Shown here in pieces: positions 9,088 to 46,466 of a stretch of 64,000 nt of DNA (within the stretch, counting starts at the first letter, position 1; each line of letters begins with the position of its first letter). A model generated the notes under the pieces. It had not been told where the DNA came from and ran no database searches. It saw only the letters and a program-made list of their open reading frames with translations. The position numbers and the translations under genes are program-made. The DNA comes from a virus (taxonomy: Duplodnaviria > Caudoviricetes), in the IMG/VR virus record IMGVR_UViG_3300013947_000021, positions 157,228 through 221,227 of that record. One strand, given 5' to 3'.

Positions 9088-9266
9088 TAAAAAGAATTAA
9101 GGTGCAGCCATCTCAGCCGCACCTTAATCTATTTCAACAAAAGGAGAAATCATGAAACGAAAACAACAAAAATTTACACGAACACAAAAGCAATGAGCAA
9201 AATAAATGAAAGGAAAACAATGAAAACCAAATCACGAGCAGTAGAGATTGGGACTTAATCCCTACT
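9088..9266 (-). ncRNA. Candidate small RNA 1 (anti-SD / anti-start-codon)
   Basis: AACA-N6-TAG promoter 9265-9277, 5' hairpin, U-rich body, terminator 9098-9129; G-U pairs in both stems work only on the minus strand. Confidence 0.65.
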
Positions 9267-9296
9267 AATAATATGTTAATATTTTTTCATAAATAT

Positions 9297-9443
9297 AAAG
9301 AAAATAATGCAAGATGAATTTCCATCTTGCATTATAATTTTCTGAAAGGACAATAATACATAATAAATTGTAACGAAAATAAAATATATGAGGTTCCAAA
9401 ATCACCAATAGCTATCCCACAAATTAGATGGTGAGTCTAATTT
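9297..9443 (-). ncRNA. Candidate small RNA 2 (anti-SD)
   Basis: AACA-N6-TAA promoter 9442-9454, hairpin starting at predicted +1, UCCUUUCA core, terminator 9304-9335 with U-tract. Confidence 0.6.
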
Positions 9444-9495
9444 ATAATAGTGTTTGTAATATATTTTTAAATACCAGCCAAATTCTATATGTCCA

Positions 9496-9508
9496 AACAT
9501 ATCGATAA
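9496..9508 (+). promoter_or_regulatory. AACA-N6-TAA promoter of the prohead protease
   Basis: AACA TATCGA TAA about 30 nt before the start codon. Confidence 0.7.
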
Positions 9509-9538
9509 ATATATTTAAATACCGGAGGTGTATATAAT

Positions 9539-10354
9539 ATGGCAAATATGCCTATTGGATATATAATTCTTGAAGGTGCACCATCTGAAATTCCAGATGC
9601 CACTATAATAAAAGAATCTAATAAAAGAGTTATAGGAGAAGGAATTATTCAGACTGCAGAAGAAGAAAATAGAAATGGAAGATGTTATCTTCAGCCTGAT
9701 CTTTTAAGAGAAGTTCAGTGTGCAAGAACTAAAGAACTTCTTACTACAGGAAATATGCTTTCTGAGAATGGTCATCCTATGGATACATCTATGATTAGGC
9801 AGCAGACTATTGATCCTAATAATACTGTCGCTAGATTTCTTAAGATCTGGATGGATGGAAATAATGTAATGGCTCAATTTAAGGGAACTAATAATGCTAA
9901 GGGCGAAGAATTTGATCAGGATCTTAGGGAAGGCGTTCTTCCTAGCTGGTCTCTTAGAGCTCTTGGTTCTCTTGCAAATAAGGGTGGACGTAATGTAGTT
10001 GAAAATCTTAAGGTTATTACCTGGGATAGAGTTATTTATCCGTCTCATCCTCATGCTTATACTACTAGACTTGTAAGCGAGTCTGCTGGAATTCGTGATA
10101 ATTCTATTAATACTATGAATAAAAATGGTAAACTCATTCCTATTACAAATGAGTCTGTTGTTTCATATATTAAATCAGAATCTGGGAGAATTAAATCTCT
10201 TATTGAGCAGGTTGATTTTATGTATGAATCTACTGATATCGTAGATAATGGACGTAGAGTAAGACTTGTTGCTAAGAATGGTGATATCTTTATGATAAAT
10301 CTTGAAAATCATGTTGCTAATGAAATTGAAAAATATTGTCTGACTAGAAGATAA
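9539..10354 (+). CDS. Prohead core protease (T4 gp21-like)
   Basis: NRNGRCY, ENGHP, SLRALGS and DRVIYPS motifs. Confidence 0.88.
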   Translation: MANMPIGYIILEGAPSEIPDATIIKESNKRVIGEGIIQTAEEENRNGRCYLQPDLLREVQCARTKELLTTGNMLSENGHPMDTSMIRQQTIDPNNTVARFLKIWMDGNNVMAQFKGTNNAKGEEFDQDLREGVLPSWSLRALGSLANKGGRNVVENLKVITWDRVIYPSHPHAYTTRLVSESAGIRDNSINTMNKNGKLIPITNESVVSYIKSESGRIKSLIEQVDFMYESTDIVDNGRRVRLVAKNGDIFMINLENHVANEIEKYCLTRR

Positions 10355-10457
10355 ATAATACATGAATTAGGTAGAAGGGTTGTTCCCTTCTACCTAGCTT
10401 TTATTACGTCAACTTATAAATAAATATTAGATATATTGAAAGGAGGAAAATAATATT

Positions 10458-12671
10458 ATGCCTGTAATGTATAATAATGTAAATACTGGTGCACCGCAGC
10501 AGTTTAATATATATTATCATATGTCTACTAATAATAAGTCTTTTCTAGAAATGCATCAATTTCTAAAAGACCGTGGAATACAAAATAATAAATTTATGCT
10601 TGTTCTTCTAAACCCAGAACTTGCAAGAATAGATCCTAGGGATCCTAATCTTCCAATGCCTTATAGAGCTCTTGTATTAAGGGAATGCCTATCCAATCCT
10701 TGGTATTTCTTTAGAGAAATTATAAGGGTACCTCAGGAAGGTCAAACAGCAGGTGTACCTTTCCAATTAAATAGAGGAAACTTGGCACTTTTATTCTGTC
10801 TTATGCTCAATATGAATATATATCTTGAACTTCCTCGACAGACAGGTAAGACTATTGGAGCAGTTTGTTGGTATCTTTATTTGTATAACTTTGGAACTCA
10901 GAATTCTCAGATGTCTTTCTTAAATAAGAAGCTTGACGATGCTAAGCTTAACTTACAGCGTCTTAAGAATATAAGAGATCTTCTTCCTTCTTATTTAAAA
11001 ATGGATTCTGCTTATAGTGCAGATGGCACTAAGTTAAAGTCTAGAAGTAATGTCGAAAGTATGCAGCATGTCTTAAATAATAACAATATTAAGACCATGC
11101 CGTCTGCTAGATCTGCCAATGCAGCAGCCAGCCTTTTAAGAGGTCAGACTACGCCTATTATATACATGGATGAGTATGCCTTCATGCCATATAATAATAT
11201 CGTTTACTCTAACATGATTCCTGCATTTAATACTGCAGCGCAGAATGCTAAGCAAAATGGATCTCCTTATGGACTTCTTTTAACTTCTACCCCCGGATTC
11301 TTAACTACAGATGAAGGTAAAGCCGCATTTGATCTTAAGAATAGAGCTACTGTATTTAGTGAAAACTGGTATGATCTTCCTGTAAATGCAATTATGGATA
11401 TTATTCATACTAATACAAATTCTAATTTTGTATATATTAAATATACTTATCAGCAGCTTGGTAAATCTGAAGAATGGTTTAGAGATCTTTGTATTACTCT
11501 TAATAAGGATTGGGAAGCAATACGTCGAGAGATTCTTCTTGAATGGGCTCTTGCTAATACCAATTCTCCATTTAGTCCTGAAGATCTTGATACTATAAAG
11601 AGTTTATTAAGACAGCCTATAAATACAGTTCTTATAAATAATAAGTATGAATTAAGAATATATGAAAAAATAGATCTTAGATATCCGCCTATAATGGGAG
11701 TCGACGTCTCTGGTGGATATAGAAGAGACTCTTCTGCAATAACTATTATAGATTCTTATAGTACAAGGGTTACCGCAGAAATGAATAATAACTTTATATC
11801 TACCCCTGAATTAGCAATGGTTATATATAAAATAGTAACCGAATGGATTCCTAATGCAGTAGTAAATATAGAGCGAAATGGCGGATTCGGTGCATCTGTT
11901 ATTGCAAGATTACTTCAGACTTCTATAAGAAAGAATCTTTTCTATACAATAAAAGATAAAGTTGTAGAAGAAAGAGTTCTCGGATCTGCTATTCATAAAA
12001 CAACACAAAAAACAAAAGTTTATGGTTCAGATTCTACTAAAACTGAAAGAGAAACTCTTATGGAGATTCTCCGAGATAGAGTAGAATATCATAAAGACAA
12101 GATAGTATCTCCTATAATATATGAAGAACTTTCTGGTCTTGAAGTTAAAAAGGACGGTAGAATTGAGCATTCTAGTAATACTCATGACGACCAGGTATTC
12201 TCATGGCTCTGGGCTCTTTATGTATATTACTATGGTGGAGATTTAATGCGGAACTGGGGTATAACAAAACATGTTCTGCGTACTGATGCCGATCTTGAAG
12301 AAGCTGTTGTAGATATTGGAGAAGAACAGGAAGATGTTGTAGGAAGTATCGATACTGCAGATAATCCTGATATTCAATCACAGCTTGATGCTATGGATAG
12401 ATCTCCTGGTAAGAAATCTTATCAAGAATTTTCTAAAGAAGAAGAAGCTAAAGATAATGCATATTTAGCAAAAATTTTAGCAGATAAAAATATAAGAAAT
12501 ACATTAAATAGTAAATTTAAAGTTATGGCTTCTGAATATTCTAATAACGATGGAAGCTCTGTAACTAATATTCCTACAGATGTATTTATGAACTTTAATA
12601 AAGATGATAATGAAATAAATCAGTATTCAGTTTTACAAGGAAACTTGTCTAATTTATTTGGAGGTAAGTAA
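10458..12671 (+). CDS. terL: Terminase large subunit
   Basis: Walker A PRQTGKT, Walker B YMDEYAF, TSTP coupling motif, nuclease GVDVSGG, IERN and HDDQV. Confidence 0.95.
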   Translation: MPVMYNNVNTGAPQQFNIYYHMSTNNKSFLEMHQFLKDRGIQNNKFMLVLLNPELARIDPRDPNLPMPYRALVLRECLSNPWYFFREIIRVPQEGQTAGVPFQLNRGNLALLFCLMLNMNIYLELPRQTGKTIGAVCWYLYLYNFGTQNSQMSFLNKKLDDAKLNLQRLKNIRDLLPSYLKMDSAYSADGTKLKSRSNVESMQHVLNNNNIKTMPSARSANAAASLLRGQTTPIIYMDEYAFMPYNNIVYSNMIPAFNTAAQNAKQNGSPYGLLLTSTPGFLTTDEGKAAFDLKNRATVFSENWYDLPVNAIMDIIHTNTNSNFVYIKYTYQQLGKSEEWFRDLCITLNKDWEAIRREILLEWALANTNSPFSPEDLDTIKSLLRQPINTVLINNKYELRIYEKIDLRYPPIMGVDVSGGYRRDSSAITIIDSYSTRVTAEMNNNFISTPELAMVIYKIVTEWIPNAVVNIERNGGFGASVIARLLQTSIRKNLFYTIKDKVVEERVLGSAIHKTTQKTKVYGSDSTKTERETLMEILRDRVEYHKDKIVSPIIYEELSGLEVKKDGRIEHSSNTHDDQVFSWLWALYVYYYGGDLMRNWGITKHVLRTDADLEEAVVDIGEEQEDVVGSIDTADNPDIQSQLDAMDRSPGKKSYQEFSKEEEAKDNAYLAKILADKNIRNTLNSKFKVMASEYSNNDGSSVTNIPTDVFMNFNKDDNEINQYSVLQGNLSNLFGGK

Positions 12672-12672
12672 T

Positions 12673-13443
12673 ATGCCTATAGCAAATAAAATGAATAAAT
12701 TACTTGATAAAATAGAAAGACGTCTTGGAACTAGTCAGCTTAAACTCCCAGATTATCTTTCTAAAGATAAATGGGCTAGTGTAGTTATTTCTAATGAAAC
12801 TCTTGATACATTTAGCAGATATTTTCCTAATACATTAAAAATTAATCTCGATCTTTCTACTAGGCGAGTAGATGGATGGTATGTAATAGATGAATATGTA
12901 CCAGATGGAGTAGAAATACTTGGAGTTAGAGATATAGACTGGACTACATATAATGCAGATGCTTTTGCTTCTCAGCAAGCTGAAGGATATGGAGTTTATG
13001 GAATGCTTGTTAATAACTATGGATTAGATGATATTGCTCTTGCACAAATGAGAGCAGATATGCTTTCTCTTTACAATAATAATATCTTTGTAGATTTTAA
13101 AGCTCCTAATCTTGTAAAAGTAAACTCTGTATCTAGAAATGATATGGTTAAGTTTTCTGGTTCTATACCGATTGAATTACTTATTAAGCATGCTGATAAT
13201 CTTATGACAATTCCTGCAACTATGATGGAGATATTTGAAGATCTTGCTCAAGCAGATGTAGCTACATTCTTATATCAGGAACTTAAATATTATGATGGTC
13301 TTGAAACAGTATATGCAAATATTGATCTTAGACTCAATGATCTTGCAGATGCTGCAAGTAAGAGATCTGATATTGTAAGTCAGCTTGAAGATTCTTATGT
13401 TTCTGCTGCTAATAAAAATCAGCCAATTATGTTTACAGTATAA
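12673..13443 (+). CDS. Probable virion structural (neck/head completion-like) protein
   Basis: Coupled to terminase, GGAGGT RBS before ATG 12673; function inferred from context only. Confidence 0.5.
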   Translation: MPIANKMNKLLDKIERRLGTSQLKLPDYLSKDKWASVVISNETLDTFSRYFPNTLKINLDLSTRRVDGWYVIDEYVPDGVEILGVRDIDWTTYNADAFASQQAEGYGVYGMLVNNYGLDDIALAQMRADMLSLYNNNIFVDFKAPNLVKVNSVSRNDMVKFSGSIPIELLIKHADNLMTIPATMMEIFEDLAQADVATFLYQELKYYDGLETVYANIDLRLNDLADAASKRSDIVSQLEDSYVSAANKNQPIMFTV

Positions 13444-13449
13444 AAAATA

Positions 13450-13478
13450 AAGAGAAGAGCAAAATGCTCTTCTCCTTT
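13450..13478. terminator. Bidirectional terminator
   Basis: GAGAAGAGCA/TGCTCTTCTC stem flanked by A and T runs. Confidence 0.8.
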
Positions 13479-13488
13479 TTCTTTCCTA

Positions 13489-13914
13489 TTAAAACCCCAT
13501 ATAATCTATATTTTTATTAAAGAAATGCTCTCTAATAATATGAGAAACAGCACATAATTTCTTTAAATAATATTTCTGATCAAGATGAATAGCTAAATGA
13601 TTTTTACCATCTTTAGATATGTCTCTAGCTACATCTATATATTTAAATATGTATTTAATGAAATATTTAAATTCTTTTTCTGTAAAACTATCATATTTAT
13701 CACTAGTTTCAAATAAAGATGAAGTTTCATATCTTTGATTTATTTTTTCAACCTTTAATGAATCAAATTCAGTATATCTTTTAAAAAGAAGTTTATTATA
13801 AACATCTTGTGGAAGATCAGTAAGGAATAAATATAATTCATTATTTTTATCTATATAAAAATAATAATTTATATCAAAACTGTCCATTTCTTTAACAAAC
13901 TGCTGAATTATCAT
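13489..13914 (-). CDS. Hypothetical protein
   Basis: 141 aa ORF with RBS. Confidence 0.65.
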   Translation of the reverse strand: MIIQQFVKEMDSFDINYYFYIDKNNELYLFLTDLPQDVYNKLLFKRYTEFDSLKVEKINQRYETSSLFETSDKYDSFTEKEFKYFIKYIFKYIDVARDISKDGKNHLAIHLDQKYYLKKLCAVSHIIREHFFNKNIDYMGF

Positions 13915-13934
13915 AATTGATTTCTCCCTTTAAT

Positions 13935-14723: not shown

Positions 14724-14725
14724 TT

Positions 14726-15481: not shown

Positions 15482-15595
15482 TATTTTTTGCTATAGCCTT
15501 TCTCGATTTTTGTTACTTTTAAGTTTTCAAATTTATAAAAAATAATAAAGTAACCCAGATACCTGTAAATAGGTATCTGGGAAACTATTATCTTT

Positions 15596-17048: not shown

Positions 17049-18578
17049 TTATGAATTTATTTCATATTGATTCATAAATATCATAGGCTGAATTAATTTA
17101 GCCCTTGCATTCTCAACTTCAGATAATTTACTATCCAATGTATTAGCATTCATATTAACCTCAACACATTTGGTTGCATATTTACTAAAGACTGGCTTTT
17201 TATATTCATAAAATTTTCTAGTATAATAGAATCCATCATCTACTATATCTTTATAAATAGTATTAACGTCTCTGGTACGGCCAAATGTTTGTTGAGCTAA
17301 TACTCTACTCTTGAAGGGTTCAGCTAAATTAACTGTTTCAGTTAATCCTTTAATATCCATTGCTGCTCCAGCAGATTTAGTTGTAGTAAGAATTATCTTC
17401 TTGCTTAATTGCTCTGCTTTAAGCTCTGATGGAATTATACTTGTATAAATACCAACTTGATTTATTAACTCTGGGAAGTTTTCATAAATCCATTTCTGTA
17501 CTTCAAGTATAGCTTCATTGGTTCCTATATAAAATAGACTCTTACCAGGTTTACGAATTGCTGCATCTACCAAGATATATAGAAGTTTTAAGAAATTTTC
17601 ATTATGAATTAAATAATCAGTATATTTAATTCTATTCAATCCATAATTATTCTTACATTCTGTAGCTTCTACAGGACTTGGCATACTGTTAAATCTAATA
17701 GCAGCATACTTTGTATGAGGATCTTCATTTCGATTAAATAAATCTATAGATGGTACATTCTTAAAGTACAATCTATAAATATTATTTTCAGCCATATCAG
17801 ATCTTCCAGGTGTTGCTGTAAGATAATAAGTCAAATAAGTATTACTATAGCAATCTATTTGAAACATATTATCAAAATTTAAATGAGCTTCATCATAGAA
17901 TTTGATTCCTATATTACAATATTTAAAGAAATCAGATACTGTTTCCCAACCTTTGCTATCTCCAATACTTCTTAATGTAGAATGTGTAGAAAGAATAACT
18001 TTATATTTTGATACATCTCGATTCATTAATTTCATAAATGATGGAGCACCACTTATCAAATATATTTCATCCGCAGATATATCAGTATATTCTATAAAGA
18101 ACTTCTTCCACTGTTCTAGCCATCCCACACTATCAGTAATTACAATAGGTCTTAATTGTAAAAATGCTGTTGTAGCTATAGCGCAATATGTCTTACCTTT
18201 ACCAGTATTTAAATTCACACATAGCATTGGATAATGCTTATTATATGAATACTTACCAGAAGATATCATAAACCGTATAGCTTCAGATTGTGTTTCATCT
18301 CTAGGTTTATACTTAAGATTAATTTGTCCTATAGATTTATATGGGTCTACATCATAATCGATTACCGGATCAGAGGAAAATACTCGTGAAAGAAAATCAA
18401 GATCTATACCTCTAGGAAGGTATAGAATTTTCTTTTCTTTATCATATATCATCCCTTTTGGAAATCTTTTATGATAAGTCATATCATAAATAGAAAATGT
18501 CTTCTCAATTGTAGGTGCATCTCCTAGATTATAATCATATATTTCTATATGAGTTCGGTATGCAACTATTTTATTCAT
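17049..18578 (-). CDS. uvsW: SF2 DEAH helicase (UvsW-like)
   Basis: Q motif PRDETQ, NTGKGKT, DEAH, TATPGR, QTFGRTR. Confidence 0.88.
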   Translation of the reverse strand: MNKIVAYRTHIEIYDYNLGDAPTIEKTFSIYDMTYHKRFPKGMIYDKEKKILYLPRGIDLDFLSRVFSSDPVIDYDVDPYKSIGQINLKYKPRDETQSEAIRFMISSGKYSYNKHYPMLCVNLNTGKGKTYCAIATTAFLQLRPIVITDSVGWLEQWKKFFIEYTDISADEIYLISGAPSFMKLMNRDVSKYKVILSTHSTLRSIGDSKGWETVSDFFKYCNIGIKFYDEAHLNFDNMFQIDCYSNTYLTYYLTATPGRSDMAENNIYRLYFKNVPSIDLFNRNEDPHTKYAAIRFNSMPSPVEATECKNNYGLNRIKYTDYLIHNENFLKLLYILVDAAIRKPGKSLFYIGTNEAILEVQKWIYENFPELINQVGIYTSIIPSELKAEQLSKKIILTTTKSAGAAMDIKGLTETVNLAEPFKSRVLAQQTFGRTRDVNTIYKDIVDDGFYYTRKFYEYKKPVFSKYATKCVEVNMNANTLDSKLSEVENARAKLIQPMIFMNQYEINS

Positions 18579-18604
18579 ATTTTTATACTCCTTATATTAA
18601 TTCG

Positions 18605-18767
18605 AAAAAATAAAAGCCTATATATACTCTCTATATAAGTTGACTAAGCTTATATAGAAAGGTATATATAGGGTTGGAAGAAAATCAGACCGGAGAAATA
18701 TTTTAAGAAGGTCTGATTTTGTCGAAAATAAATTTGAGCAAATAATCTAATCTTTTTATTTACTCAT
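18605..18767 (-). ncRNA. Three-hairpin structured RNA / extended terminator downstream of the polymerase gene
   Basis: Stems at about 18617-18672, 18681-18720 and 18735-18766, ending in a U-tract on the minus strand. Confidence 0.45.
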
Positions 18768-18806
18768 ACTAATATTATATAATCAAAATATCAATTATTT
18801 CGATTA

Positions 18807-20467
18807 TTAGAAATGAATAATATTAGTTGTATTATTTGTATCAGAACCTCGTTTAACACCAATAGATTCAATAGGAAATCCTTTTACACTATCATTAACA
18901 ATTTCTGCTACTGAAACAAATGGTATTACCCATTTCGGAACAGGTTCTGCTATTGGAATTGCAATGGCATCTATTCCATCTGAATATTGTTTAGTTTTTA
19001 ATAATGCTATTGCTTTATTATATACTTCTGGAAATGTATCTCTGATCTTATCTATATTCTTAGAATTTATATCAACTTTTACAATGTCTATAGGATTTCT
19101 AGTTGTAAGATCAAGAGCTTCAGTTCCTTCTTCATGAAGCGCATTATATGCATATGATGCTACTATACCTTGAATACGCATAGGATTCTCATATGTGGAT
19201 ACTGCTTTCACTTGTGCAGGTTTATAATATTTCTTTTCTCCAGCATTTATAGAATCAAATATTTCTTGTTCTACTTTATTAATATCCTTTAATACTCTTA
19301 CTATATCAATAGATTCAGAATCAAGAATATCATCATAAAGTATTTTCTTTAAATGCTCTTGTGTTGTAGGATTACTTGTAGACTTAACAAATGCATCCAT
19401 TCCTTTTATATCAAGAGACTTCTCTTCAGGAACTATATGTCCTTCCTGAAGCTCTATCTTAGATGCATAATGTTTCTTTGCATCCGTTATAAGCAATCTC
19501 TTAAATAGAAATTCTGTTTTTAAACTCATCAAACATGGATTGGTATTATTTTTATTTGTATTAGAATTAGCACAATATACTTGCATATATGAGTTTACCA
19601 ATGAACTCATACAATACGTAAATACATTGATAATAGAATATCTTAATCCATCCTGAGGAGTTATAATCATAGGATTAATTTCTCTATCAGCTTCCATCTC
19701 TTCATCATAAGCTTCAGGATTATTAGGATCAAGTTCATTTACTTTAAGATCAGATACTTTAGATTTCATTGTGTCTACATCAGTTACCATTTTCTTTATC
19801 TTCATTGGTATACCTGCGCACATATTTCTTACGTATCTATACAATCCATCATAACAAACTATAGCACTATCAGTATCCTGAATAATACTTACTTTTCTTA
19901 TAAGAGATTTCATCTTTGCTACTCTATTTACAATTTGTTTATCATAATAAACAAATTCTTTTAATAAATCCCTAAGTTCATTAATCTCCTTCTTTATCTT
20001 TTCCGGAGGTTCATTAGGATCCATAAAAGGTTCATCTAATAATTGAAGAATGTAAATAGTAATATCTTGAACAGGCTTATTATCTATAAAATTATAAAGA
20101 TTATTTTTATAGAATAATCTATCAAGATCATCTTGAGGAAGTTTCTCAAGTATTTCCCAAATAATATTCATTTCCTGTTCGGATGGTACCCATCCAAATC
20201 CGGTAGAATGAAGTATCTGGAAAAATGTTTCTTCTATAGATGCATGATTTGTAATTACTTCATAATTTCTATAATATCTCTTTTCGTTAATTACATTATA
20301 AATGAATTCTATAACTTCTTCCATAGATGACATAGGTACATTATTTGCAAGGAAATTCTCAAAGAATAATGCTGCAGATGAAATTGCAGACTGTCCTTGA
20401 GTAGTTATTGCGCTTGCAACATGTACATTATAAAACATGGAAGAATACTGACCGCAAACGCCATAAA
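18807..20467 (-). CDS. polB: Family B DNA polymerase catalytic subunit, exon 2
   Basis: YG of motif B, QDTDS motif C, KKHY and LDIKG; in frame with exon 1 after splicing. Confidence 0.92.
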
Positions 20468-20819
20468 CAAATATGCGATCTGATTTTGTTCACATAGTTC
20501 GCTACTCTATGCAGTTCTTTTATGAACTTCTCTAGTATTTCTCTAGACGATCAGACTATATCTTTACCATTTTACAGGAATGAGTACAGGACTTAGCATT
20601 TTAAGCCTCTTAGTCGTTGAACCTTCTTAGAACTTTTTCTAAGATCGGCTGCTGATTATACATTCTTATCTACTTAGGGTTGCCCCATATAGAATCTCTT
20701 TTGTTGTTTCTGACTTTCGTCCCCATATATAATTTATGGTAAAAGAGCTTTAGCACTTCCCAGCAATTCTCACATTTTAATCGACATTCTTTCGAATGAA
20801 GTGGGCTCTATGGCATTTA
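20468..20819 (-). ncRNA. Group I self-splicing intron, 352 nt, no homing endonuclease
   Basis: Core elements AAUUGCUGGGAA, AAUCAGCAGCC, GUUCAACGACUA and AAGAUAUAGUC; P1 UGGGU/GCCCA; P10 GCCAUAGA/UUUAUGGC; terminal G; splicing restores KIDANGFYG. Confidence 0.95.
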
Positions 20820-21981: not shown

Positions 21982-24216
21982 ATGAATTTTGTAACCAACC
22001 AATCAACAGAGCAGCCTACTATCAATATTGAAAACCCTGAAAATTATTGGGTTTATCTTCCTATTCTTCGAGGTGAAAATATTAATCTCGAAATAGGAGC
22101 AATAAATAGAGATAACTGGCAGCATCATTATGATTCTATACTTAATATTTTAAGGGATGCAATTGAAACTGATGAAGTTCAACATGCATTTATTTCTATT
22201 AAATTTAATGATGGAATCACTCTTGATCTCTCGGTTATGGACTATTTACTCAATCTCATAATGTGGAGTATGCTTATAAAAACAGCAGTTCCGATTCAGT
22301 CTTATCATGTATTCTTTGATGAAGAGATTAAAAAGGATTCTATCAAAGATTATATTGATAAATTTCTTATTAATGAATCTCGAAAGAAATATAGCAATAA
22401 GGAGTTGAATAATATCATCGATGATGCTCTATATCATTTTCATGATATAGATGAATTCTCTTTATATTTATCCAATACTGTAAATCTTGAAGATAATGTA
22501 GAATTAATGAACAAGAATCCAGAATTCTATGAGTGTATGCATGCAGATCTTTCTCAGGTTCCTCTTGAAGATGTAAAGTCAGTTGGTATGTCTTATGCAA
22601 ATAAGGCTATTGATTTAATGAAGCATTCTAAACAGTATCTTGGTTATGATCATTGTCTTGCAGATGCTTGTAGAGCTGGCGAAGGCATTAACCCTAAACA
22701 GTTTAAAGAGTTTACTATAAATATAGGTACTAAGCCTGATGGACGTGGTGGAGTATTTGAAAAACCTATACTTCATTCTTTCATTAATGGTGGCGTAGAT
22801 AATCCTGTAGATTATTTTATCGAATCTTCTACAGGTAGAACAGCACAGATTATAAAATATAATAACGTTGGTTCTTCTGGACACTTTGCTAGGCTTTTAG
22901 GTCTTAATAATATGGATTCTCATCTTTGTCATGATTCTCATTATGATTGCGGTAGTACAAACTTTATACAGCTTACAATCAAAGATAAGAAAATGCTTAA
23001 GATGCTTGTAAATCGATATTATAGAACAAATCCTAATGGTATAGAAAATTGTATTAAGAGAACTGATACTCATCTTATTGGACAGACTATATATTTAAGA
23101 TCTCCTATTACTTGTGCATCTGCAGCAAGAGGACAAGGTATATGCTATAAGTGTTATGGCGATCTTGCTTATACTGTTTATGATGCAGATATAAATTTTG
23201 GAGTTAATATTGGACGAGTTGCATCTGAAACTCTTTCATCTAGTTTAACTCAGAAGCTTCTTTCTGCAAAACATCTTCTTGAAACATTTATTGAGAAGAT
23301 TACTTGGAACCCAGAATTCTATAAGTATTTTGAGCTCGAAGGTAATATAATCAGAACTAATGGTGATATTGAAGATTCTGATTTAAAGGATCTTAAAATC
23401 ATTATTAATCCTGATAATATTGCATTGGTAGATGAAGAAGATGATGATCTTTCTTATGATGACGATGATGAGAAAGGAACTCCACTTTATAATGAATACA
23501 TTACAGAGTTTGATGTATTAAATGAAGCTAATGGAGAAGTGTCTCATATTTGTAATGATAAGAATGCAAAACTTTATATATCTTCCGAATTCAATACTGA
23601 GATTCGTCGTAAAGCAGAAGCAATAGATACTAGTGTAGCAATATCATTTAATGATATTAAAGATATTACTTTATTCATTATGCCTATTGAAAATAATGAA
23701 TTAAGTAAGACTCTTGATTATCTTAATGATCTTCTTAATAAGAAGAGTACTATTGAGAAATTTAATATTCATGATCTTCTTCAGAATATTATAGGAGCAG
23801 TTATAGATGGTGGTCTTAATATAGCATCAACTCATCTTGAGGTTATATTGAGCAATCAGTGTAGAGATGCTTCTAATATATTGGAGAAAGCAAAGTGGTA
23901 TCTGCATAATCCTGATTATCAGATACTTACTCTTGATCAAGCATTAACTTCTAATCCTTCTGTAACAGTTTCACTCAGTTATCAGAAAGTAAAACGTATG
24001 CTGTATAATCCTCTTACATTTAAAAAGAATGGTTCATCATTTATGGATTTATTCTTTATGGAACAGCCTCAATATGCTATTAAAGGTATAGAAAAGGATG
24101 AGAATAAAGAACCTGAGCATAAACCTGGAGATGTAATTGAGCCTATGATATTCTTTGAGAATCCTAATGGAATTACTACAACAGACAGTGAAGATGATGA
24201 TAGTGATGAAGGTTAA
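21982..24216 (+). CDS. rpoC: RNA polymerase beta-prime C-terminal half (probably non-virion RNAP)
   Basis: Bridge helix SSGHFARLL, DCGS, RSPITC...ICYKCYG zinc site, trigger loop TQKLLSAKH, THLEVIL. Confidence 0.9.
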   Translation: MNFVTNQSTEQPTINIENPENYWVYLPILRGENINLEIGAINRDNWQHHYDSILNILRDAIETDEVQHAFISIKFNDGITLDLSVMDYLLNLIMWSMLIKTAVPIQSYHVFFDEEIKKDSIKDYIDKFLINESRKKYSNKELNNIIDDALYHFHDIDEFSLYLSNTVNLEDNVELMNKNPEFYECMHADLSQVPLEDVKSVGMSYANKAIDLMKHSKQYLGYDHCLADACRAGEGINPKQFKEFTINIGTKPDGRGGVFEKPILHSFINGGVDNPVDYFIESSTGRTAQIIKYNNVGSSGHFARLLGLNNMDSHLCHDSHYDCGSTNFIQLTIKDKKMLKMLVNRYYRTNPNGIENCIKRTDTHLIGQTIYLRSPITCASAARGQGICYKCYGDLAYTVYDADINFGVNIGRVASETLSSSLTQKLLSAKHLLETFIEKITWNPEFYKYFELEGNIIRTNGDIEDSDLKDLKIIINPDNIALVDEEDDDLSYDDDDEKGTPLYNEYITEFDVLNEANGEVSHICNDKNAKLYISSEFNTEIRRKAEAIDTSVAISFNDIKDITLFIMPIENNELSKTLDYLNDLLNKKSTIEKFNIHDLLQNIIGAVIDGGLNIASTHLEVILSNQCRDASNILEKAKWYLHNPDYQILTLDQALTSNPSVTVSLSYQKVKRMLYNPLTFKKNGSSFMDLFFMEQPQYAIKGIEKDENKEPEHKPGDVIEPMIFFENPNGITTTDSEDDDSDEG

Positions 24217-26807: not shown

Positions 26808-27251
26808 ATGAGCAATACTAAAAAATATGTAATAAATACTAAAAATATTTTTGGATTAGAAAAATTTTTGCATATTAGTAAAGATAAATTAGAAGTTCCA
26901 GATGATTATTATAGTGATAAAGATGCATGGGATATGATAAATGAAGCGGCACATTTTAGTAACGATCTTTGTACACTTAAATTATTATATCCTCATGCAA
27001 ATTATAAAGATATTCTTATTGCATCATTTCAGGCTAATCCCAAATTACTAGCTTATATTTTGAGCATGTTTAAAATTTGTAAATCTGAAGGAAATCCAAT
27101 TGATGCAGATACAATAAATAATTGGATGGCTGAAGCTACAGTAGTAGATGGATCAGCTAATAAAGAATTACTTGCTAATTCATCAATTATCGATAATAAG
27201 TTTCCTAGCAAATCTAATAAGTCATATATACAGAAGGAGATAACAAAATGA
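26808..27251 (+). CDS. Hypothetical protein (candidate sRNA target)
   Basis: 147 aa ORF, GAAAGGA RBS. Confidence 0.65.
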   Translation: MSNTKKYVINTKNIFGLEKFLHISKDKLEVPDDYYSDKDAWDMINEAAHFSNDLCTLKLLYPHANYKDILIASFQANPKLLAYILSMFKICKSEGNPIDADTINNWMAEATVVDGSANKELLANSSIIDNKFPSKSNKSYIQKEITK

Positions 27252-36100: not shown

Positions 36101-36116
36101 TTCCGAGGTGATATAA

Positions 36117-38800: not shown

Positions 38801-38814
38801 GGGAGGAATAAATA

Positions 38815-39660: not shown

Positions 39661-39675
39661 TATAAAAAATAAAGC

Positions 39676-39701
39676 CGTAGAGGGGGAAACCCTCTACGGT
39701 A
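39676..39701. terminator. Bidirectional terminator
   Basis: CCGTAGAGGG/CCCTCTACGG stem between convergent genes. Confidence 0.85.
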
Positions 39702-39713
39702 TTTTCTTTTATA

Positions 39714-42095
39714 TTAATATCCAGAATCATTATCATTCTCGTCTGAATGGCTTTCATTCTTTTCAGCATTAACTTCAAGCATAGTCTTATCATAAAGTTC
39801 CTGATGCTTTGCCGTATCAAGATGAGTTCCAATATAATATTCAAATAGCTTATTTGTATAAGCATTCTTAAGTTTCTCATCATCGTTTCCAGCCATCTTC
39901 ATTTCAACAATATTCTGTACAAATTCCTTTGTATTAGTAATAAGCTGATTAGTATTAGTTACATTAATGAAACTAGGTGGAGGAAGAGTAACTTTAATTC
40001 TTTCATTCTCACTATACTCATAATTATATATAGGAGTAATGAGTTCAGAAAGAAGATGCTCATAAAGTTCCTGTCTCTTATAGCAGAATCTAAGAACCTT
40101 AGAAGAACTCATAGTAAGCTGCATAGCATAATCAACAGACTGACGAGTCTGAATTATTTCAATCGGAATTCCAGTACTATTAATAGCTGCTTCTTCAAGT
40201 GCTTGCATAAGTTCTGTAGGAGTCTGAATATCCTGACCTTGCATAACCTCAAACTGAATAGGTGCATCGCCAGAAGCATTAGTAGGAATTACATAATCAT
40301 TATATCTACCAGTAATATTAAGTATATTATTAATACTTTGGAACTGTCTAATATTAAAATTAGATTGCTTAATCTGATTTATGACATTAAGTAAGCATCC
40401 TGCAATATTCTTATCAGCAGTCTGTTTTACATAATAAACTCTCTTGTCTATACTTCTAGTAAGATTTCCTATAGAGGTAGTAATATAAAGAGATGCATAA
40501 ATCTTTGCAGGAATAAGACCCTTTTCAAGATCAGAAATTCCTCTATGAGTAATAGGATCCTGTTTAAAATAGAAATGGACCATATCTTCCGGAGGAATAA
40601 ATGTAACCTTAAAATTATTTATATTACCAATATTAAACTGGTCATTATATTTAAGAATCATATAAATTTCTCTAGAAAGATCCTGATTTGCATTTACAAA
40701 TTTCTTATCAATAAATCTGGAGAGCTGATTTGCTACATACTTAAGAGTTTCATCTCTCCTAATAGCATCTACTCCATTTATCATATTACCATTTCTACTA
40801 TTAGTAAGAGCATCACTAAAAATACTCTTAAATCCCATAAATGATTCACCATCAAGACTGGGATCAGATACTTCAAAGTAATAATATCCCATACACATAT
40901 CTTCAATGTAAATAGGATATACCATCTCTCTAGGACAACGTTTTACAACACATCCAGTTGCTTTTACATCAACAGGCTTTTGATTTACACCTGCAATAAG
41001 TCCATCATTAGCAACTACATAATCACTATTTTTACGTTTTGTAAGATCTATATCGCCATTAAGTTCAAACTTATCATTTGCTTCATTAATAGAATTTTCA
41101 TATATAGAAGCAAGGGATTTTACATTAGCAGTTTTATTATGAATTGCATTATATTTATCTTTAATAGCACTTTCAATAATACCCTTAGTACAAATCTCTA
41201 CTCCAATATTAAAAGATTCATCATTATGAAGATGACACAATGGTTCTATAGTAGCATTATCTCTATTAGAAGCTGCAGATTCAAGTATAGTTTCAGATCT
41301 ATGCTCATCTTTTATTACACATTTATTCTTATTAAGCGAAAATAAAAAGTGTTCATTCATAGGCATAGAATTATCGTTATCCGAATTTGCTTCCTTCATA
41401 GTATTCATAGGTATTTCTTCATTAGCCTGCTTTGAAGCAAGAAGTTTACCTATAGCAATATTATATGGTACTCTATAAACAAAACACTCACCATACTTAG
41501 CTATATCATCATACATTTCATCAGTAAGTTCAGCAAGCTTATATCTTGTTTCCATACGCTTACATCTCTCACTAAATGTAACTTCAGATGTTGCAGATGC
41601 AGACACTTTCTGGAAAGATAAAAAGTCTTTAGAGAAATGATCTGCAGATAATACACAATCTTTCTGTACTGCTAAAGCTTCTTCAAGCTTAGGCATATAC
41701 TTACAAATAGTATCTATTTCCTGATCAAGTTCTTTAAGATACTTATTATTCATAAAAGTATTATAAAGATCATCAGTCATAGATGCAGTATCAAACATCT
41801 GAGATATATCTTTAACTAACTCGTCTTCACTGGAATTATTGCCTGATAATGCCATTCTTGAATAAAGATTTGACATATTAGGTTTGCCGAATAATTCCAT
41901 ATTTTTATTAACTATTTTATCAAGATTTCTATTTATATCAGCACTAATTCTTTTAATATCATCATTTTGCTGAGAAGAAGACATATATGTAGATCTATAT
42001 AAGTAATCCATATTATTTTTTACATTGTCTGCTAATTTAGATATGGTTTTATTAGCTCTATTTATGCCTCGCGATTTATTATTTTTATTAGCCAT
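39714..42095 (-). CDS. Portal protein (T4 gp20-like)
   Basis: YGECF, RSIDKRVYYV, DYVIPT..G..PIQFEVMQG and TGIP patterns; promoter 42122-42134. Confidence 0.8.
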   Translation of the reverse strand: MANKNNKSRGINRANKTISKLADNVKNNMDYLYRSTYMSSSQQNDDIKRISADINRNLDKIVNKNMELFGKPNMSNLYSRMALSGNNSSEDELVKDISQMFDTASMTDDLYNTFMNNKYLKELDQEIDTICKYMPKLEEALAVQKDCVLSADHFSKDFLSFQKVSASATSEVTFSERCKRMETRYKLAELTDEMYDDIAKYGECFVYRVPYNIAIGKLLASKQANEEIPMNTMKEANSDNDNSMPMNEHFLFSLNKNKCVIKDEHRSETILESAASNRDNATIEPLCHLHNDESFNIGVEICTKGIIESAIKDKYNAIHNKTANVKSLASIYENSINEANDKFELNGDIDLTKRKNSDYVVANDGLIAGVNQKPVDVKATGCVVKRCPREMVYPIYIEDMCMGYYYFEVSDPSLDGESFMGFKSIFSDALTNSRNGNMINGVDAIRRDETLKYVANQLSRFIDKKFVNANQDLSREIYMILKYNDQFNIGNINNFKVTFIPPEDMVHFYFKQDPITHRGISDLEKGLIPAKIYASLYITTSIGNLTRSIDKRVYYVKQTADKNIAGCLLNVINQIKQSNFNIRQFQSINNILNITGRYNDYVIPTNASGDAPIQFEVMQGQDIQTPTELMQALEEAAINSTGIPIEIIQTRQSVDYAMQLTMSSSKVLRFCYKRQELYEHLLSELITPIYNYEYSENERIKVTLPPPSFINVTNTNQLITNTKEFVQNIVEMKMAGNDDEKLKNAYTNKLFEYYIGTHLDTAKHQELYDKTMLEVNAEKNESHSDENDNDSGY

Positions 42096-42202
42096 ATTAT
42101 AACCTCCTTATTTTAAATAAGTTAATTAAATGTTCCAGTTATCGATGAATATAAAAAATAAAACCCTATAGGTATTTTGCCTATAGGGTTTATATTCTTC
42201 GA

Positions 42203-43006
42203 TTAAAAGTCTATACACTTAATATGAATTTTTTCCTTAAAAGAATAATGATAATTTCCATATGATATAGGATTCTTTTTCTTATTAGGAATAAAAGTTA
42301 CTGCATATATTCTAGATATATCAGAAAATCTAACTACAATATCAAGTTGATCATTTTTTGCTAATGTAAATAATCCTTTATAGAGTGATATAGTTACATT
42401 TCTATTAAATCCATTTATATTACTACAAGGTAAACTTATATATACAGATCCTAAAGAAACTTTATTATCAAATACTTTTCTAACTCCAACCATATTTTGT
42501 ACATCTGTAAATACATATGGTTCAGATAGATTTTTCATTGATAAGAATCCGTCCAATTCATTATTGAATGCCTGATATACATAATCATTACTCAATAACT
42601 TTGGAAGCATTTGAATTTGTGGAATACGACTATTACCAGAATATAATATATATAGATCTTCAGATATTACATATCTAGCTCTTATTTTGCCAAGTCTATA
42701 TTCTTCATACGTATAATCTGGTAAAATTACCCAAGGAAAATCCTCAGGTATATAGAATGCTTCGGTACTTTGAAGTATATCTTTATCTAAGCATTCTGTT
42801 CTAAAAGTAATATCAGTATTCAATTCATATGGAATATCTATCTCGTGAATACAAGCTGCATCTGCAGGTCCACCATATAATTTATTGGTGGACTTGAGAG
42901 CAATAAATGTTTGACATTTGCTACATCTAGCAAGTTCACATAAATATCTAAAATCAGAGATTGGTCTTAGAGTTGATGAATTGCTGGTTAGGAGTTGCAG
43001 TCGCAT
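42203..43006 (-). CDS. Hypothetical protein co-transcribed with the polymerase exonuclease subunit
   Basis: AAGGA RBS before ATG 43006, overlapping the end of the upstream gene. Confidence 0.6.
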   Translation of the reverse strand: MRLQLLTSNSSTLRPISDFRYLCELARCSKCQTFIALKSTNKLYGGPADAACIHEIDIPYELNTDITFRTECLDKDILQSTEAFYIPEDFPWVILPDYTYEEYRLGKIRARYVISEDLYILYSGNSRIPQIQMLPKLLSNDYVYQAFNNELDGFLSMKNLSEPYVFTDVQNMVGVRKVFDNKVSLGSVYISLPCSNINGFNRNVTISLYKGLFTLAKNDQLDIVVRFSDISRIYAVTFIPNKKKNPISYGNYHYSFKEKIHIKCIDF

Positions 43007-45029
43007 AATCTCTAAATTCCTTCCATTTATCATAATCAGGATCTTTCTTATTTTCAATATATTCCTGATCAATTTTTCCTATTTCAATTTTATTAAGTTT
43101 CTCATGAGAAACTAATCCAATTTCCATAGGATTAATTAAATCTTCTTTTGGTTTCTTCATAAATATCATAGGTTCAATAAGTTCTGGCTTTACTTTACCA
43201 TCTACTATTGTTTTATTTATGACTTTATTTTCACCAAAGAATTCCATTACATTAATAAGTTTAGGCATATTCTCAAATGCAAACTCTTCTGCACTATTAT
43301 ATTTTAATCCATATTGCGGTTTCATAATATGAGTAAAGAAGTTTATGACCTCATTATACAATTCTGTATATCCAGCAAGATTAAAATATTTGCATGCTGT
43401 AGGAATTATAGATCTAGACAGATAATAATCTGCAAAATCATTATCAAATTCTACTTTACCTATCATATTATAAGACATAATAAGAAATTCTCTTATAATA
43501 GATGGATATAGCGAACTAAAGTCACTATCTATCGCATTATCTACTACATCAATTGGATTTCCATATATTTTTATCTTATTATCATCAGATACCTTCATCG
43601 GATCTGCAACAAATGCACCAGAATATTTTTCATTAGGTTTAGGATTAAACTTGTTTACATTATTACCCATTATATATCCTAATTTATAAAATTCTTTTAT
43701 TGCTCGATTTGTAAGATAAACTGTTTGACGATGAACTTTAGACTGTCGAGTATTATTCATTATAGATTTCATTGATGTATAGTCTATATCTCCACAAACT
43801 GCTTCAATACAATACTGTACAACAGTATCCATAATATTATAGAATACAAATGTCTTATAATCAAGATATGGAAGCTGCTTAATATCTGTAGTTATATGCT
43901 TATAATCAAGCTTTCTAACTTTTGCTATTACAGAACCAATATCATCAAGTTTATATGATTTAAACTTAGTCCGTCCTTTTCTTATAGAAGCAAACTGAAT
44001 AAGTTGATCAAGATAAACTGTATAAGAAGATATCTGCCCAAAGTCTGTTCTTTCTGCAAAATCTCCTTTATGCTCTTCATCTACAAAATAATATGCAACC
44101 TTATTTTCAAAATCAGGATGACACATTATATCTCTTGGATTAACTCCGAGCTGTTCAATTCTTGCAATAATGTATGGAATATCGAAGCCCGCGTTCCATG
44201 CCATTATATAGTCTGGTTTAAATGTATTAACTGTCTTAAAGAAATCAGATATTAAATTTATTTCTTTATCTTCATCATAGAATCTAAATACAATATTGAA
44301 ATCCATTAAAGGTCTATACTTTGGATTATCTTCAGCATCAACTGCATTATATAAAAAGTCTTTTAATTCTTTCATTAATACAGGACCAGTTTCTTTATTT
44401 GCCAAAGTGTTATAAAATTCATCTATAAGAGCATTTCCTTTTGTACGTAATAAGAATACATTGATTTGTTTCTCTTTATCAAATATACTACTTATTGCAT
44501 TAATTGGACATTCTCCAGGTTGCGCAAAATCTCCAACTGCATTAATGCCATCGACCTCAATATCAAAGAATGCTTTAGTTGGATTATAAGAACTATTGAC
44601 ATATTTTTTATCAAATCTGAATCTATAATTATCTTCTATATTCATATCTGAATTAAATATATCTGGTTCCATATGAAGTTTCTTATTATCTCTTGCATTT
44701 TTAGTTCTTAGATTGTCATAAAAGAACTCTAACGCTCGTTTTCCAAGATGAGTTGCTATATCTTTTTCAAGATCTTTAAATTTGCATGTAACCTTATCTA
44801 CATCATCTTTATCTATATACATTCTTGGATAAGATACACGTTTATCTGGTTTTGCTATATAATATTCATAAGTTGGATTCTTGATTTCCTCTTTATATTT
44901 TAATCCAGTATCCAAATCTTTATAAACAATTGTTAAATAGTCGTTTTCATCATTTTCCTTATAATTTCCGCGATGATACTCAGTATTAAGTATGGATATA
45001 TTAGCTCCATCCTTATAATGCTTAATCAT
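42954..45029 (-). CDS. polB: Family B DNA polymerase N-terminal subunit (3'-5' exonuclease plus motif A)
   Basis: FDIEVD, WNAGFDIPY, YNIMD, YSGAFV, DFSSLYPSII; motifs B and C absent. Confidence 0.92.
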   Translation of the reverse strand: MIKHYKDGANISILNTEYHRGNYKENDENDYLTIVYKDLDTGLKYKEEIKNPTYEYYIAKPDKRVSYPRMYIDKDDVDKVTCKFKDLEKDIATHLGKRALEFFYDNLRTKNARDNKKLHMEPDIFNSDMNIEDNYRFRFDKKYVNSSYNPTKAFFDIEVDGINAVGDFAQPGECPINAISSIFDKEKQINVFLLRTKGNALIDEFYNTLANKETGPVLMKELKDFLYNAVDAEDNPKYRPLMDFNIVFRFYDEDKEINLISDFFKTVNTFKPDYIMAWNAGFDIPYIIARIEQLGVNPRDIMCHPDFENKVAYYFVDEEHKGDFAERTDFGQISSYTVYLDQLIQFASIRKGRTKFKSYKLDDIGSVIAKVRKLDYKHITTDIKQLPYLDYKTFVFYNIMDTVVQYCIEAVCGDIDYTSMKSIMNNTRQSKVHRQTVYLTNRAIKEFYKLGYIMGNNVNKFNPKPNEKYSGAFVADPMKVSDDNKIKIYGNPIDVVDNAIDSDFSSLYPSIIREFLIMSYNMIGKVEFDNDFADYYLSRSIIPTACKYFNLAGYTELYNEVINFFTHIMKPQYGLKYNSAEEFAFENMPKLINVMEFFGENKVINKTIVDGKVKPELIEPMIFMKKPKEDLINPMEIGLVSHEKLNKIEIGKIDQEYIENKKDPDYDKWKEFRDYATATPNQQFINSKTNL

Positions 45030-45117
45030 GATTTTACTCCTCCTATATTTACCTAATTAGATAAGTTTAGAAGCCTATTTATTTTATTTTTCTTATTATT
45101 TAAATATTTGACCATAT

Positions 45118-45229
45118 ATAAAATAATATATCTAGGCCATTTGAAGGCCTAGATATATTACATAATTAAGAAAGGGGTTTCATATGTCATCAAAACAATA
45201 TAGATAGGGACAGACAACTTATCTATATT
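45118..45229 (-). ncRNA. Candidate small RNA 3 (anti-SD / anti-start-codon)
   Basis: AACATATTATTAA promoter 45228-45240, hairpin at +1, unpaired UGACAU..CCCCUUUCUU, terminator 45124-45160. Confidence 0.6.
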
Positions 45230-45304
45230 AATAATATGTTACTGTGCTAGTATTTAACTACTTTAACACTTTTATAAATAAAATTAAGGAGGTTAATATA
45301 TAAA

Positions 45305-46219
45305 ATGAGCGATTTAGGAATAGATATTTCTTATCTTGTAAAGGATGAGAAAAAGGAAGAAGAAGGCGGCATTAAACTTGGTACAATTAATATGAGTGAT
45401 AAGCCTCCTGCAGAAGTTATTGAAGATGCTCCTAAAAAGAAAAAGAGAGAATCTAAAGCTCCTGATGTAAATGCTATGGCATCTAATGCAGCATCTGTTG
45501 AAACTCAAAATTATGCAGATTCATATAATGAAACTAATAATATTATTCGTGGTGCTATTATTCAGGCTGATGTTCTTAGTGGCGAAATTAAACAGGATAT
45601 AGATGCAGTTAGATCTAGTAAAACTATAAAAAATAAATATACTTATATTACTAATCTTACAGCATCAGCTAGTGCACTTATCAATACAAAGATAGCTGCT
45701 GTAAAAGAACTTAATTCATCTATTACTCAGTCTCATAGATTTAATCTTGATAGACTTAAGATGTTTAATAATGAAAATAAAGATGGTAATGATGATGCTA
45801 GAACAATGGACCTTTATAATATGTATCTTACTGGTCCTATGGGTGGTTATATTCCCAATACTCCTTCAGTACAAGATATTAATCTTGGAGTAAATGGTTC
45901 ATCTACTGGAAATATTCAAGGAGTTGATATGGGTGTTAATAATAATGGTGGACAGCCTCTTACTCCTGAACAGAAGAGAATGAGATTTGAATCAAATCCT
46001 GATATCAAAGTTGTAGTAAAATTTGATCAAGCATCTGGAAAAAGATTCTTCGATGTAATTGATGGATCTGGAAAGAGTATTCCTGATTATCCTAGGCCCG
46101 ATGATTTTCTTCTTGAAGATACAACTATTGATGTTGCAGCAGGAGTTGCAAAGAATAGAAATATTAATCAGATCTGGCCTCTTATTATTATCGGTAGTGG
46201 CAATATTAATGAGTATTAA
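45305..46219 (+). CDS. Hypothetical late protein
   Basis: 304 aa, promoter 45265-45277, GGAGGT RBS. Confidence 0.7.
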   Translation: MSDLGIDISYLVKDEKKEEEGGIKLGTINMSDKPPAEVIEDAPKKKKRESKAPDVNAMASNAASVETQNYADSYNETNNIIRGAIIQADVLSGEIKQDIDAVRSSKTIKNKYTYITNLTASASALINTKIAAVKELNSSITQSHRFNLDRLKMFNNENKDGNDDARTMDLYNMYLTGPMGGYIPNTPSVQDINLGVNGSSTGNIQGVDMGVNNNGGQPLTPEQKRMRFESNPDIKVVVKFDQASGKRFFDVIDGSGKSIPDYPRPDDFLLEDTTIDVAAGVAKNRNINQIWPLIIIGSGNINEY

Positions 46220-46439
46220 AAAAAAAAGAAGAAGACAGTAGCCCATGGCGGCTACTGTCTTTTTATATTCAAAATCAGATGTATCATCTTTTTATGAGGC
46301 ATACATGTACATTTATTAAGGCAATCGAAGAAATCTATCTATGACAAAATTCTGTTCAAAACTTTTATATATCTTTTGAAAGGATGGTGTTTACGATTTA
46401 CGGATTTGTCCAACGAACAAGAATTTATACATCTGATTT
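46218..46439 (-). ncRNA. Candidate small RNA 4 (closed long stem, anti-SD loop)
   Basis: AACT-N6-TAA promoter 46438-46450, 13-bp stem 46427-46439/46272-46284, terminator 46232-46262. Confidence 0.55.
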
Positions 46440-46466
46440 AATTTGTAGTTAGTATATTAGTAAAAT

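Follow-up and report, generated by a model that had tools for sequence, protein, structure and literature searches.

The 64,000-nucleotide (nt) stretch of viral DNA analysed here (the window) comprises bases 157228-221227 of the record IMGVR_UViG_3300013947_000021, which is 221,227 bp long and has a G+C content of 29.6%. Four intergenic units on its minus strand, U1 to U4, each contain a late-type phage promoter, a body lacking a substantial open reading frame (ORF) and an intrinsic terminator. An earlier note, made from the sequence alone, had described them as a family of antisense small RNAs, and the coordinates and motifs it gave for the four units were confirmed. The proteins encoded in the window include two RNA polymerase beta-like proteins (genes 56498-58681 and 21982-24216), a family-B DNA polymerase (42954-45029, minus strand), an SbcC-like protein (46467-49184, minus strand), terminase, prohead protease, tail sheath and the major head protein, and the source is therefore a jumbo phage of the phiKZ/AR9 type. 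The rough gene call made for this analysis gave 213 genes, and nearly all genes of the phage have their own terminator 2-20 nt past the stop codon. A blastn comparison with deposited phages gave no DNA match, and the intergenic regions gave only short, weak matches to five related records; close relatives were obtained from gut metagenome assemblies. No tRNA genes were found in the window and no Rfam family was matched there at gathering score.

The promoter of U1 (AACATATTATTA, 9277-9266) has its predicted transcription start (+1) at the last A, 9266, and the next base is G where A is usual. The predicted RNA of about 181 nt (9086-9266; all units are on the minus strand) consists of a 5′ hairpin (9266-9240), an open body and a terminator stem (9129-9095) with a U tract, and this terminator was also called by an independent terminator scan. 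The body of U1 contains the words UUCCUUUCA (CCUUUC at 9213-9208) and CUCCUUUU (9146-9139), each with a CAU 5 nt upstream and with probabilities of being unpaired of 0.75 and 0.95. The promoter of U2 (AACACTATTATA(A), 9454-9443; +1 predicted at 9443) precedes an RNA of about 148 nt (9296-9443) with a 5′ hairpin formed by AAAUUAGA and UCUAAUUU (9443-9421) and a terminator stem at 9335-9304; its word GUCCUUUCA places CCUUUC (9349-9344) 9 nt 5′ of the terminator. U3 lies upstream of the DNA polymerase gene, with a promoter AACATATTATTA(A) at 45240-45229, a predicted +1 at 45229 and an RNA of about 114 nt (45116-45229), in which a 5′ hairpin starting at +1 (45229-45197) is followed by CAU, then CCCCUUUCUU (CCUUUC at 45175-45170), and a terminator stem (45161-45123). 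The U4 promoter (AACTACAAATTA(A), 46450-46439; +1 predicted at 46439) starts 16 nt past the stop of the SbcC-like gene. The U4 RNA of about 222 nt (46218-46439) is built unlike U1 and U3, being longer and having a 13-bp stem that closes its 5′ part on its 3′ part (46439-46427 with 46285-46273); the word AUCCUUUCAAA (CCUUUC at 46383-46378) lies inside this closing stem, which together with AUCCUUUC forms the signature of the U4-type RNA. The terminator stem of U4 (46261-46232) is bidirectional, also serving the convergent gene 45305-46219 on the plus strand.

The pattern AAC[AT]-N6-T[AT] was present in 64 of 145 gene upstream regions, mostly 34-47 nt 5′ of the ATG, and 46 of these sites were used to build a position weight matrix (PWM). 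The resulting consensus was AACW-twtwwA-TAA, with A or T at position 4 in 64 and 34% of cases and A after the TA in 97%. In the genome 86 sites scored at least 9 bits, 65 of them with a gene no more than 110 nt downstream. In phage AR9 the late promoter reads AACA-N6-T(A/G), with the last base as transcription start (PMC5312081). The motif of the present phage matches it in form, is found at a set spacing upstream of many genes in a phage encoding RNA polymerase subunits, and is a genuine promoter of this phage. The units carry AACA-N6-TA (U1, U2 and U3) or AACT-N6-TA (U4), in agreement with the phage-type promoter AAC[A/T]-N6-TA given by the earlier note. PWM scores of the unit promoters were uneven: 10.8 bits for U3 (genome rank about 65), 6.8 for U2, 3.0 for U4 and less than 3 for U1, the last because of the G at +2 in place of the near-invariant A. 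Sigma-70-like promoters in the U1-U4 regions, and the AR9-early-like word TGTATATTATAAT in the window, occurred no more often than by chance.

The unit terminators have a stem containing G+C and a U tract directly after it on the minus strand, and are strong, at -16 to -24 kcal/mol. Three were found per region compared to 0.1-0.2 in shuffled sequences, and the terminators of U1, U2 and U3 are true orphans because no gene precedes them on their strand. All four RNAs fold more stably than shuffled sequences, with z values of -4.07 (U1), -2.92 (U2), -5.48 (U3) and -3.72 (U4). The stem that had been placed at or next to +1 in every unit was found flush with +1 in U1, U3 and U4, and for U2 in the centroid structure only. 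As proposed, the units lack substantial ORFs: none contains an ORF of at least 25 codons led by a Shine-Dalgarno (SD) sequence, as determined by the census filter described below for U2-U4 and by eye for U1.

The units are retained in related phages at all four places, and their stems show compensatory changes. In L004/5/8, L006/7 and L055, whose protease is 77-79% identical, two units, each running from promoter to terminator, lie in tandem on the same strand at the U1-U2 place. The homologue of U1, a type present in four lineages, is the unit next to the downstream gene (L004/L008, L006/L007 and L055) and has its own terminator. These homologues have the promoter start TAACATAT, then GCTCGTGA or GAGCTGA, GGTTT and an invariant TTCCTTTC; their promoters end in T-G(+1) or T-A(+1), both of which fit the AR9 rule. 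The U2 place of the relatives contains a structured, purine-rich RNA unit of 230-350 nt that is unlike U2. The copies of this "unit A" RNA (L055:2130-2390, L006:1790-2030 and L008:2555-2900, all minus strand) are mutually homologous, each with a terminator and an AAC-type promoter of its own, and they contain a hairpin that covaries among the relatives (GGATCTT/AAGATCC versus GG-CCC/GGGCC); they gave no Rfam match.

The unit upstream of the polymerase gene was found in more than ten lineages. In phages with 42-60% polymerase identity it is followed by the polymerase's own late promoter. Eight related polymerase-upstream units were compared by their individual folds, MAFFT with RNAalifold having misaligned them and returned six pairs only. 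Across the eight, both the terminator stem and the 5′ stem that begins at +1 vary in sequence and remain paired, while two UCCUCU words and ACAUGA are fixed and mostly unpaired. The U3 promoter is identical in L099, L103-106 and L101. Close relatives, L099 among them, were reached through the protein encoded at 45305-46219 (90-91% identical); a pattern scan of viral and metagenome contigs for this protein gave no relatives, and only a large protein search did. Between L099 and the window the flanks, promoter, first 12 nt and terminator of U3 are nearly identical, with one terminator pair changed from C-G to U-A, a compensatory change. The body of about 55 nt is unalignable between the two, and in L099 it keeps a 5′ hairpin and GUUCCUUUAUU, containing a UUCCUUU word, 8 nt 5′ of the terminator.

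Further observations were made at the polymerase-upstream place. When L099:1295-1460 is set beside 45100-45260 of the window, the body of U3 resembles a cassette that can be exchanged while the promoter and terminator on either side of it stay fixed. L101 (1120-1450, minus strand) has two tandem units upstream of its polymerase gene, with similar terminators and different bodies, which looks like a duplication. In L013, L015, L068 (G004) and L069 (G002) a common word, GTATATTATAAT, occurs about 60-75 nt upstream of the polymerase ATG, between the small-RNA terminator and the late promoter; it is reminiscent of the AR9 early promoter AAATATATATTAT, and in the window it is no more frequent than chance.

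The U4 place is occupied in the window, L099, L103, L101 and G004. In L099 the AACT and TAA of the promoter are kept while the N6 spacer varies. A clear promoter is present at this place in G004, G002 and L101; in G004 and G002 it comes after a separate SbcC terminator and the RNA is 300-400 nt long. The U4 homologues as a whole are 220-400 nt in length, with a conserved closing stem and a strongly negative fold z. The closing stem covaries over five lineages. In the window CAGAUGUAU pairs with AUACAUCUG; L099 has G-C in place of an A-U pair, and L103 has U-G in place of a U-A pair, which can pair in the minus-strand RNA only. The arms are fully different, and still paired, in L101 (AAAUCAAGCAAUA with UAUUGCUUGAUUU) and G004 (AAUCAGGCU with AGCCUGAUU). 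The words AUCCUUUCAAA and ATCCTTTCAAA are unchanged in three alleles, and interior pairs of the predicted U4 fold received no support from the relatives. In L013 an 840-nt protein-less stretch (1905-2747) lies between the SbcC-like and convergent genes; it is G+C-rich and structured-looking, and contains two units, one of them closed by GGTAGCGGA/TCCGCTACC, with no Rfam match.

The frequency of anti-SD words was measured by an automated census that took in 70 loci in addition to the whole genome. Units were accepted if a promoter word had a terminator at or below -9 kcal/mol no more than 330 nt away, if no ORF led by an SD was present, and if long ORFs overlapped them only slightly. The census yielded 28 units forming 18 independent groups. 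Anti-SD 5-mers (six words) preceded the terminator in 14 of the 18 groups, compared to 6.4 expected from dinucleotide shuffles (P = 5e-5), while SD words in the sense direction were found in 2 groups against 2.1 expected. When k-mers were ranked de novo, with no prior word list, the top words were TCCTT, CTTTC, CTCCT, TCCTTT, CCTTTC and CTCCTT; TCCTTT occurred in 7 units (1.3 expected) and CCTTTC in 6 (0.47 expected). These are the complement of the ribosome-binding words of the phage, AAAGGAGG and GAAAGG. Of 15 units, 8 had a CAU at a distance of 3-12 nt on the 5′ side of the anti-SD word, compared to 3.4 expected (P = 0.008), and 5′ hairpins flush with +1 occurred more often in units than in a set of 49 gene leaders (Mann-Whitney P = 1.4e-4). 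The anti-SD words are mostly unpaired in the folds, and the YCCUUUC/CCUCU word is retained in relatives even where the remaining body is replaced. In the whole genome of G004 all four eligible units carry anti-SD words, two of them at new places. Two further units of the present phage lie outside the window on the minus strand, at genome positions 123090-123260, carrying UCAUCCUCAUUCAUCCUUUUUUCCUUUC, and 20508-20628, carrying UAUCCUCCAU and GUUCUCCUUG and having a promoter of 13.8 bits. The exposed anti-SD and anti-AUG sequence described in the earlier note was thus recovered, with anti-SD words enriched in unpaired bodies and CAU at a non-random spacing; the corresponding start-like words on the opposite strand are present at 9139-9154, 9207-9222, 9343-9354, 45168-45186 and 46376-46389.

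The genes themselves, their conservation, the covariation of their structures and the enrichment of the motif are observed features, and U1-U4 are very probably real non-coding RNA genes maintained by selection. We infer their expression, timing, pairing and effect from the sequence. The preferred reading, held tentatively and by analogy, is that they are late RNAs made by the phage polymerase which may pair in trans with the SD sequences and start codons of messages, in the manner of the streptococcal cia-dependent small RNAs (csRNAs). By comparison with AR9, the non-virion multisubunit RNA polymerase of the phage would start at the last base of AACW-N6-TA. In Bacillota, 5′-terminal stems protect RNAs against exonucleases, and on general grounds the stem flush with the 5′ end, together with the intrinsic terminator at the 3′ end, would give RNAs of 110-220 nt that resist exonucleases. 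The single-stranded stretch between the stems would display YCCUUUC or CUCCU, in many cases preceded at a short distance by CAU, as the complement of phage ribosome-binding sites (AAAGGAGG, GAAAGG) and the start codon. The RNAs could then pair with the translation-initiation regions of other messages, for example those of the GAAAGGAGG type, and keep 30S subunits off, acting as csRNAs, RoxS/RsaE and LhrC do. With a seed that nearly equals a generic SD complement, they may act on many messages, of the host or of the early phage.

The anti-SD plus anti-AUG layout is known from the csRNAs (PMC3091779). Both sets consist of dispersed small RNA genes with a 5′ stem-loop, an unpaired middle containing anti-SD and CAU, and a terminator stem-loop, and the action proposed for both is to block the initiation region (PMC3091779). 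When the layout of two stem-loops flanking an unpaired anti-SD/anti-AUG stretch was applied to the units, U1 and U3 fitted clearly and U2 fitted in its centroid structure, while U4 departs from it because of its closing stem. In neither region did the csRNA model of Rfam give a match, whether at E up to 10 or at gathering score. The units are encoded by a virulent-type jumbo phage, their bodies are unrelated in sequence, and their promoter is the phage AACW-N6-TAA rather than a CiaR site, judged by the usual appearance of such sites. Because both the promoter and the model match fail, the units would be csRNA-like in action and not members of the csRNA family. More generally, Rfam searches at E up to 10 with the units and their relatives returned only sub-threshold hairpin noise and no 6S RNA; tRNA-like genes, a CRISPR array and 6S RNA were considered as identities for the units and rejected.

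The RoxS/RsaE and LhrC-type small RNAs of Bacillota use pyrimidine-rich or C-rich single-stranded motifs, sometimes in multiple copies, to pair with SD sequences without long complementarity. The units resemble them in having a single-stranded pyrimidine motif directed at the SD, sometimes in several copies, and differ in having a U-rich motif, YCCUUUC or CCUCU, where the Bacillota RNAs have CCCC or UCCC, in lacking an Rfam match, and in their phage origin and promoter. Among phage RNAs, the c4 antisense RNA of P1 and P7 blocks a ribosome-binding site on a phage message (PMC12197685). It shares with the units its phage origin and its direction at a ribosome-binding site; however, c4 has one target (ant) and belongs to the immunity operon of temperate phages, while the units are several, carry a generic SD complement and have no specific phage target that could be detected. 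In AR9, a phage of the same kind with the same promoter rule, non-mRNA transcripts arise from late promoters in antisense and internal positions (PMC5312081), and the transcriptome of phiKZ contained one predicted small RNA of 75 nt, which was unconfirmed (PMC8244752). These reports describe cis-antisense RNAs and a single prediction, and not conserved intergenic small RNA genes with anti-SD words (PMC5312081, PMC8244752). A 2025 review of phage small RNAs does not contain the terms "lytic phage", "giant" or "PA5oct" (PMC12197685). Among the papers searched nothing equivalent was described for jumbo phages, and the proposed mechanism has a precedent in the csRNAs.

Several results weigh against the preferred reading of trans-acting anti-SD RNAs. 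When the unit bodies were compared with the 215 gene starts of the phage, U2, U3 and U4 paired no better than dinucleotide shuffles; the mean ungapped pairing score was above that of shuffles for U1 and the unit at genome 20508 only. In a search for the longest run no unit exceeded its shuffles, the longest complementary runs of 14, 12, 10 and 13 nt being reached by 59, 223, 332 and 74 of 500 dinucleotide shuffles, respectively. U1 and U2 both have sites of 14 nt on the start region of the gene 26808-27251, which is within chance, and no orthologue of this gene was found in the relatives. The matching gene starts that the earlier note reported in the window, and its expectation that start regions would pair better than composition-matched shuffles, were therefore not borne out. 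The term family applies to the common layout and motif and does not extend to sequence homology: U1 and U3 have only the 13-nt promoter word in common, and nhmmer profiles of the polymerase-upstream and U1-type families matched their own members only, with no homology detected across units. Four of the 18 census groups lack an anti-SD word, and in the polymerase-upstream unit of G002 the sole CU word is within the 5′ hairpin. In the window U4 could also be produced as the 3′ end of the SbcC-like message, because the SbcC-like gene has no separate terminator there. Taken alone, the promoter pattern occurs no more often in the window than by chance (40 matches, 45 expected), so that position and conservation carry the weight rather than the match alone, and the PWM scores of the U1 and U4 promoters are poor.

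A different use of the same features, considered unlikely, is that the units act in cis as leaders or insulators, in which the module tunes or times read-through into the same-strand downstream gene (8368-8994 or the DNA polymerase gene) and the CU word folds onto the downstream SD. U1, U2 and U3 are all located upstream of same-strand genes, the second U1 motif AUUUCUCCU is by eye complementary to AGGAGAAAU in the start region of the gene 8368-8994, and other units also end close to genes, such as that at genome 17087-17167 (minus strand), 28 nt before a gene. The strength of the terminators argues against read-through, however, and in the relatives the polymerase gene has a late promoter of its own, located between unit and gene. 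U4 lies between convergent genes with nothing downstream, and the U3 word CCCCUUUCUU is a poor match to the polymerase SD AGGAGGAG.

It is rather less probable that the units are structured RNAs with another function, such as a decoy or sponge for an RNA-binding protein of host or phage, a ribosomal protein or an RNase, with the pyrimidine word as the protein site. The best candidates for such a role are the U4 type, in view of its closing stem, length and fold stability, and the long purine-rich "unit A" RNA at the U2 place of the relatives, and the reading would also accommodate the fact that no single mRNA target stands out. It does not account for an enriched word that is exactly the SD complement, or for CAU occurring at start-codon spacing more often than by chance; no 6S or other Rfam family was matched, and a partner protein is not known.

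The view that the units have no function is improbable. The terminators would then shield divergent or convergent neighbours, the promoter words would be spurious and the CU words would be relics of old ribosome-binding sites. The absence of promoter over-representation and the low scores of U1 and U4 are compatible with this, as is the abundance of short matches, which are common because the genome is AT-rich. Against it, the invariant positions of the promoter are kept while the spacer varies, the stems show compensatory changes, the polymerase-upstream unit persists across 42-60% polymerase identity, and the motif enrichment has P = 5e-5.

Translation of tiny plus-strand peptides (14, 12, 7 and 22 codons) from the SD-plus-ATG words is extremely improbable, and these mini-ORFs were rejected: although good SD-spacer-ATG words occur at 9139-9154, 9207-9222 and 45168-45186, and the polymerase-upstream family conserves a CAT at constant spacing from the CU word, no promoter is present on the plus strand (near U1 the highest PWM score is 5.6 bits, in a site without TA), and the peptides lack conservation of length, sequence and even presence, being 12 aa, without a start, 16 aa and 11 aa in the U1 type and 17, 6 and 8 aa in the polymerase-upstream family (by eye). 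U2 lacks a start codon, the ATG of U4 abuts its SD, only on the minus strand are the hairpins followed by U tracts, with the exception of the U2 hairpin, and the G-U pair in the closing stem of L103 can form only in the minus-strand RNA.

As for the preferred reading of late anti-SD RNAs acting in trans, a bolder form of it is also rather improbable: that the units are fast-evolving cassettes, with several late mimics of the 16S tail that would stop SD-dependent translation of host and/or early phage messages, and with bodies swapped between close relatives, as in U3 of L099, to retarget the RNAs or escape host counter-measures. If this were true, it would amount to a phage-wide translational switch run by RNA. 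Hardly any work has been done on the small RNAs of virulent and jumbo phages, and here several such genes are maintained at constant positions throughout a clade of gut jumbo phages, beside those for the DNA polymerase, the SbcC-like protein and the prohead protease. If the reading is correct, anti-SD RNAs of this kind would mean that phages supplying their own polymerases also use RNA in host shut-off or in the switch from early to late expression, and they would constitute a compact natural set of translation blockers. The alleles with swapped bodies and covarying stems make the question directly testable.

Other features were noted in the window and elsewhere in the genome. Between the genes 18807-20438 and 17049-18578 of the window, the minus strand at 18579-18806 contains two successive terminator-like hairpins, the second of which is long and AT-rich with CCUUUC in its stem; this stretch has no AAC-type promoter. 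Outside the window, five intergenic stretches (genome 9109-9454, 9665-10007, 32983-33265, 33875-34099 and 119119-119424) have in common the group-I-intron-like core words GTTCAACGACTA..., GATATAGTC and AGAGAAGTTCATAAGAGAACTGC, and several genes there are therefore probably split by introns. An array of paralogous genes at about 96700-107400, each with a run of 10-11 G soon after the start, suggests on/off switching by slipped-strand events. At genome 94144 on the plus strand, a late-type promoter word lies within the 5′ end of a minus-strand gene, antisense across the ribosome-binding site of that gene and ending at the bidirectional terminator of the neighbouring gene, and may give rise to a cis-antisense RNA.

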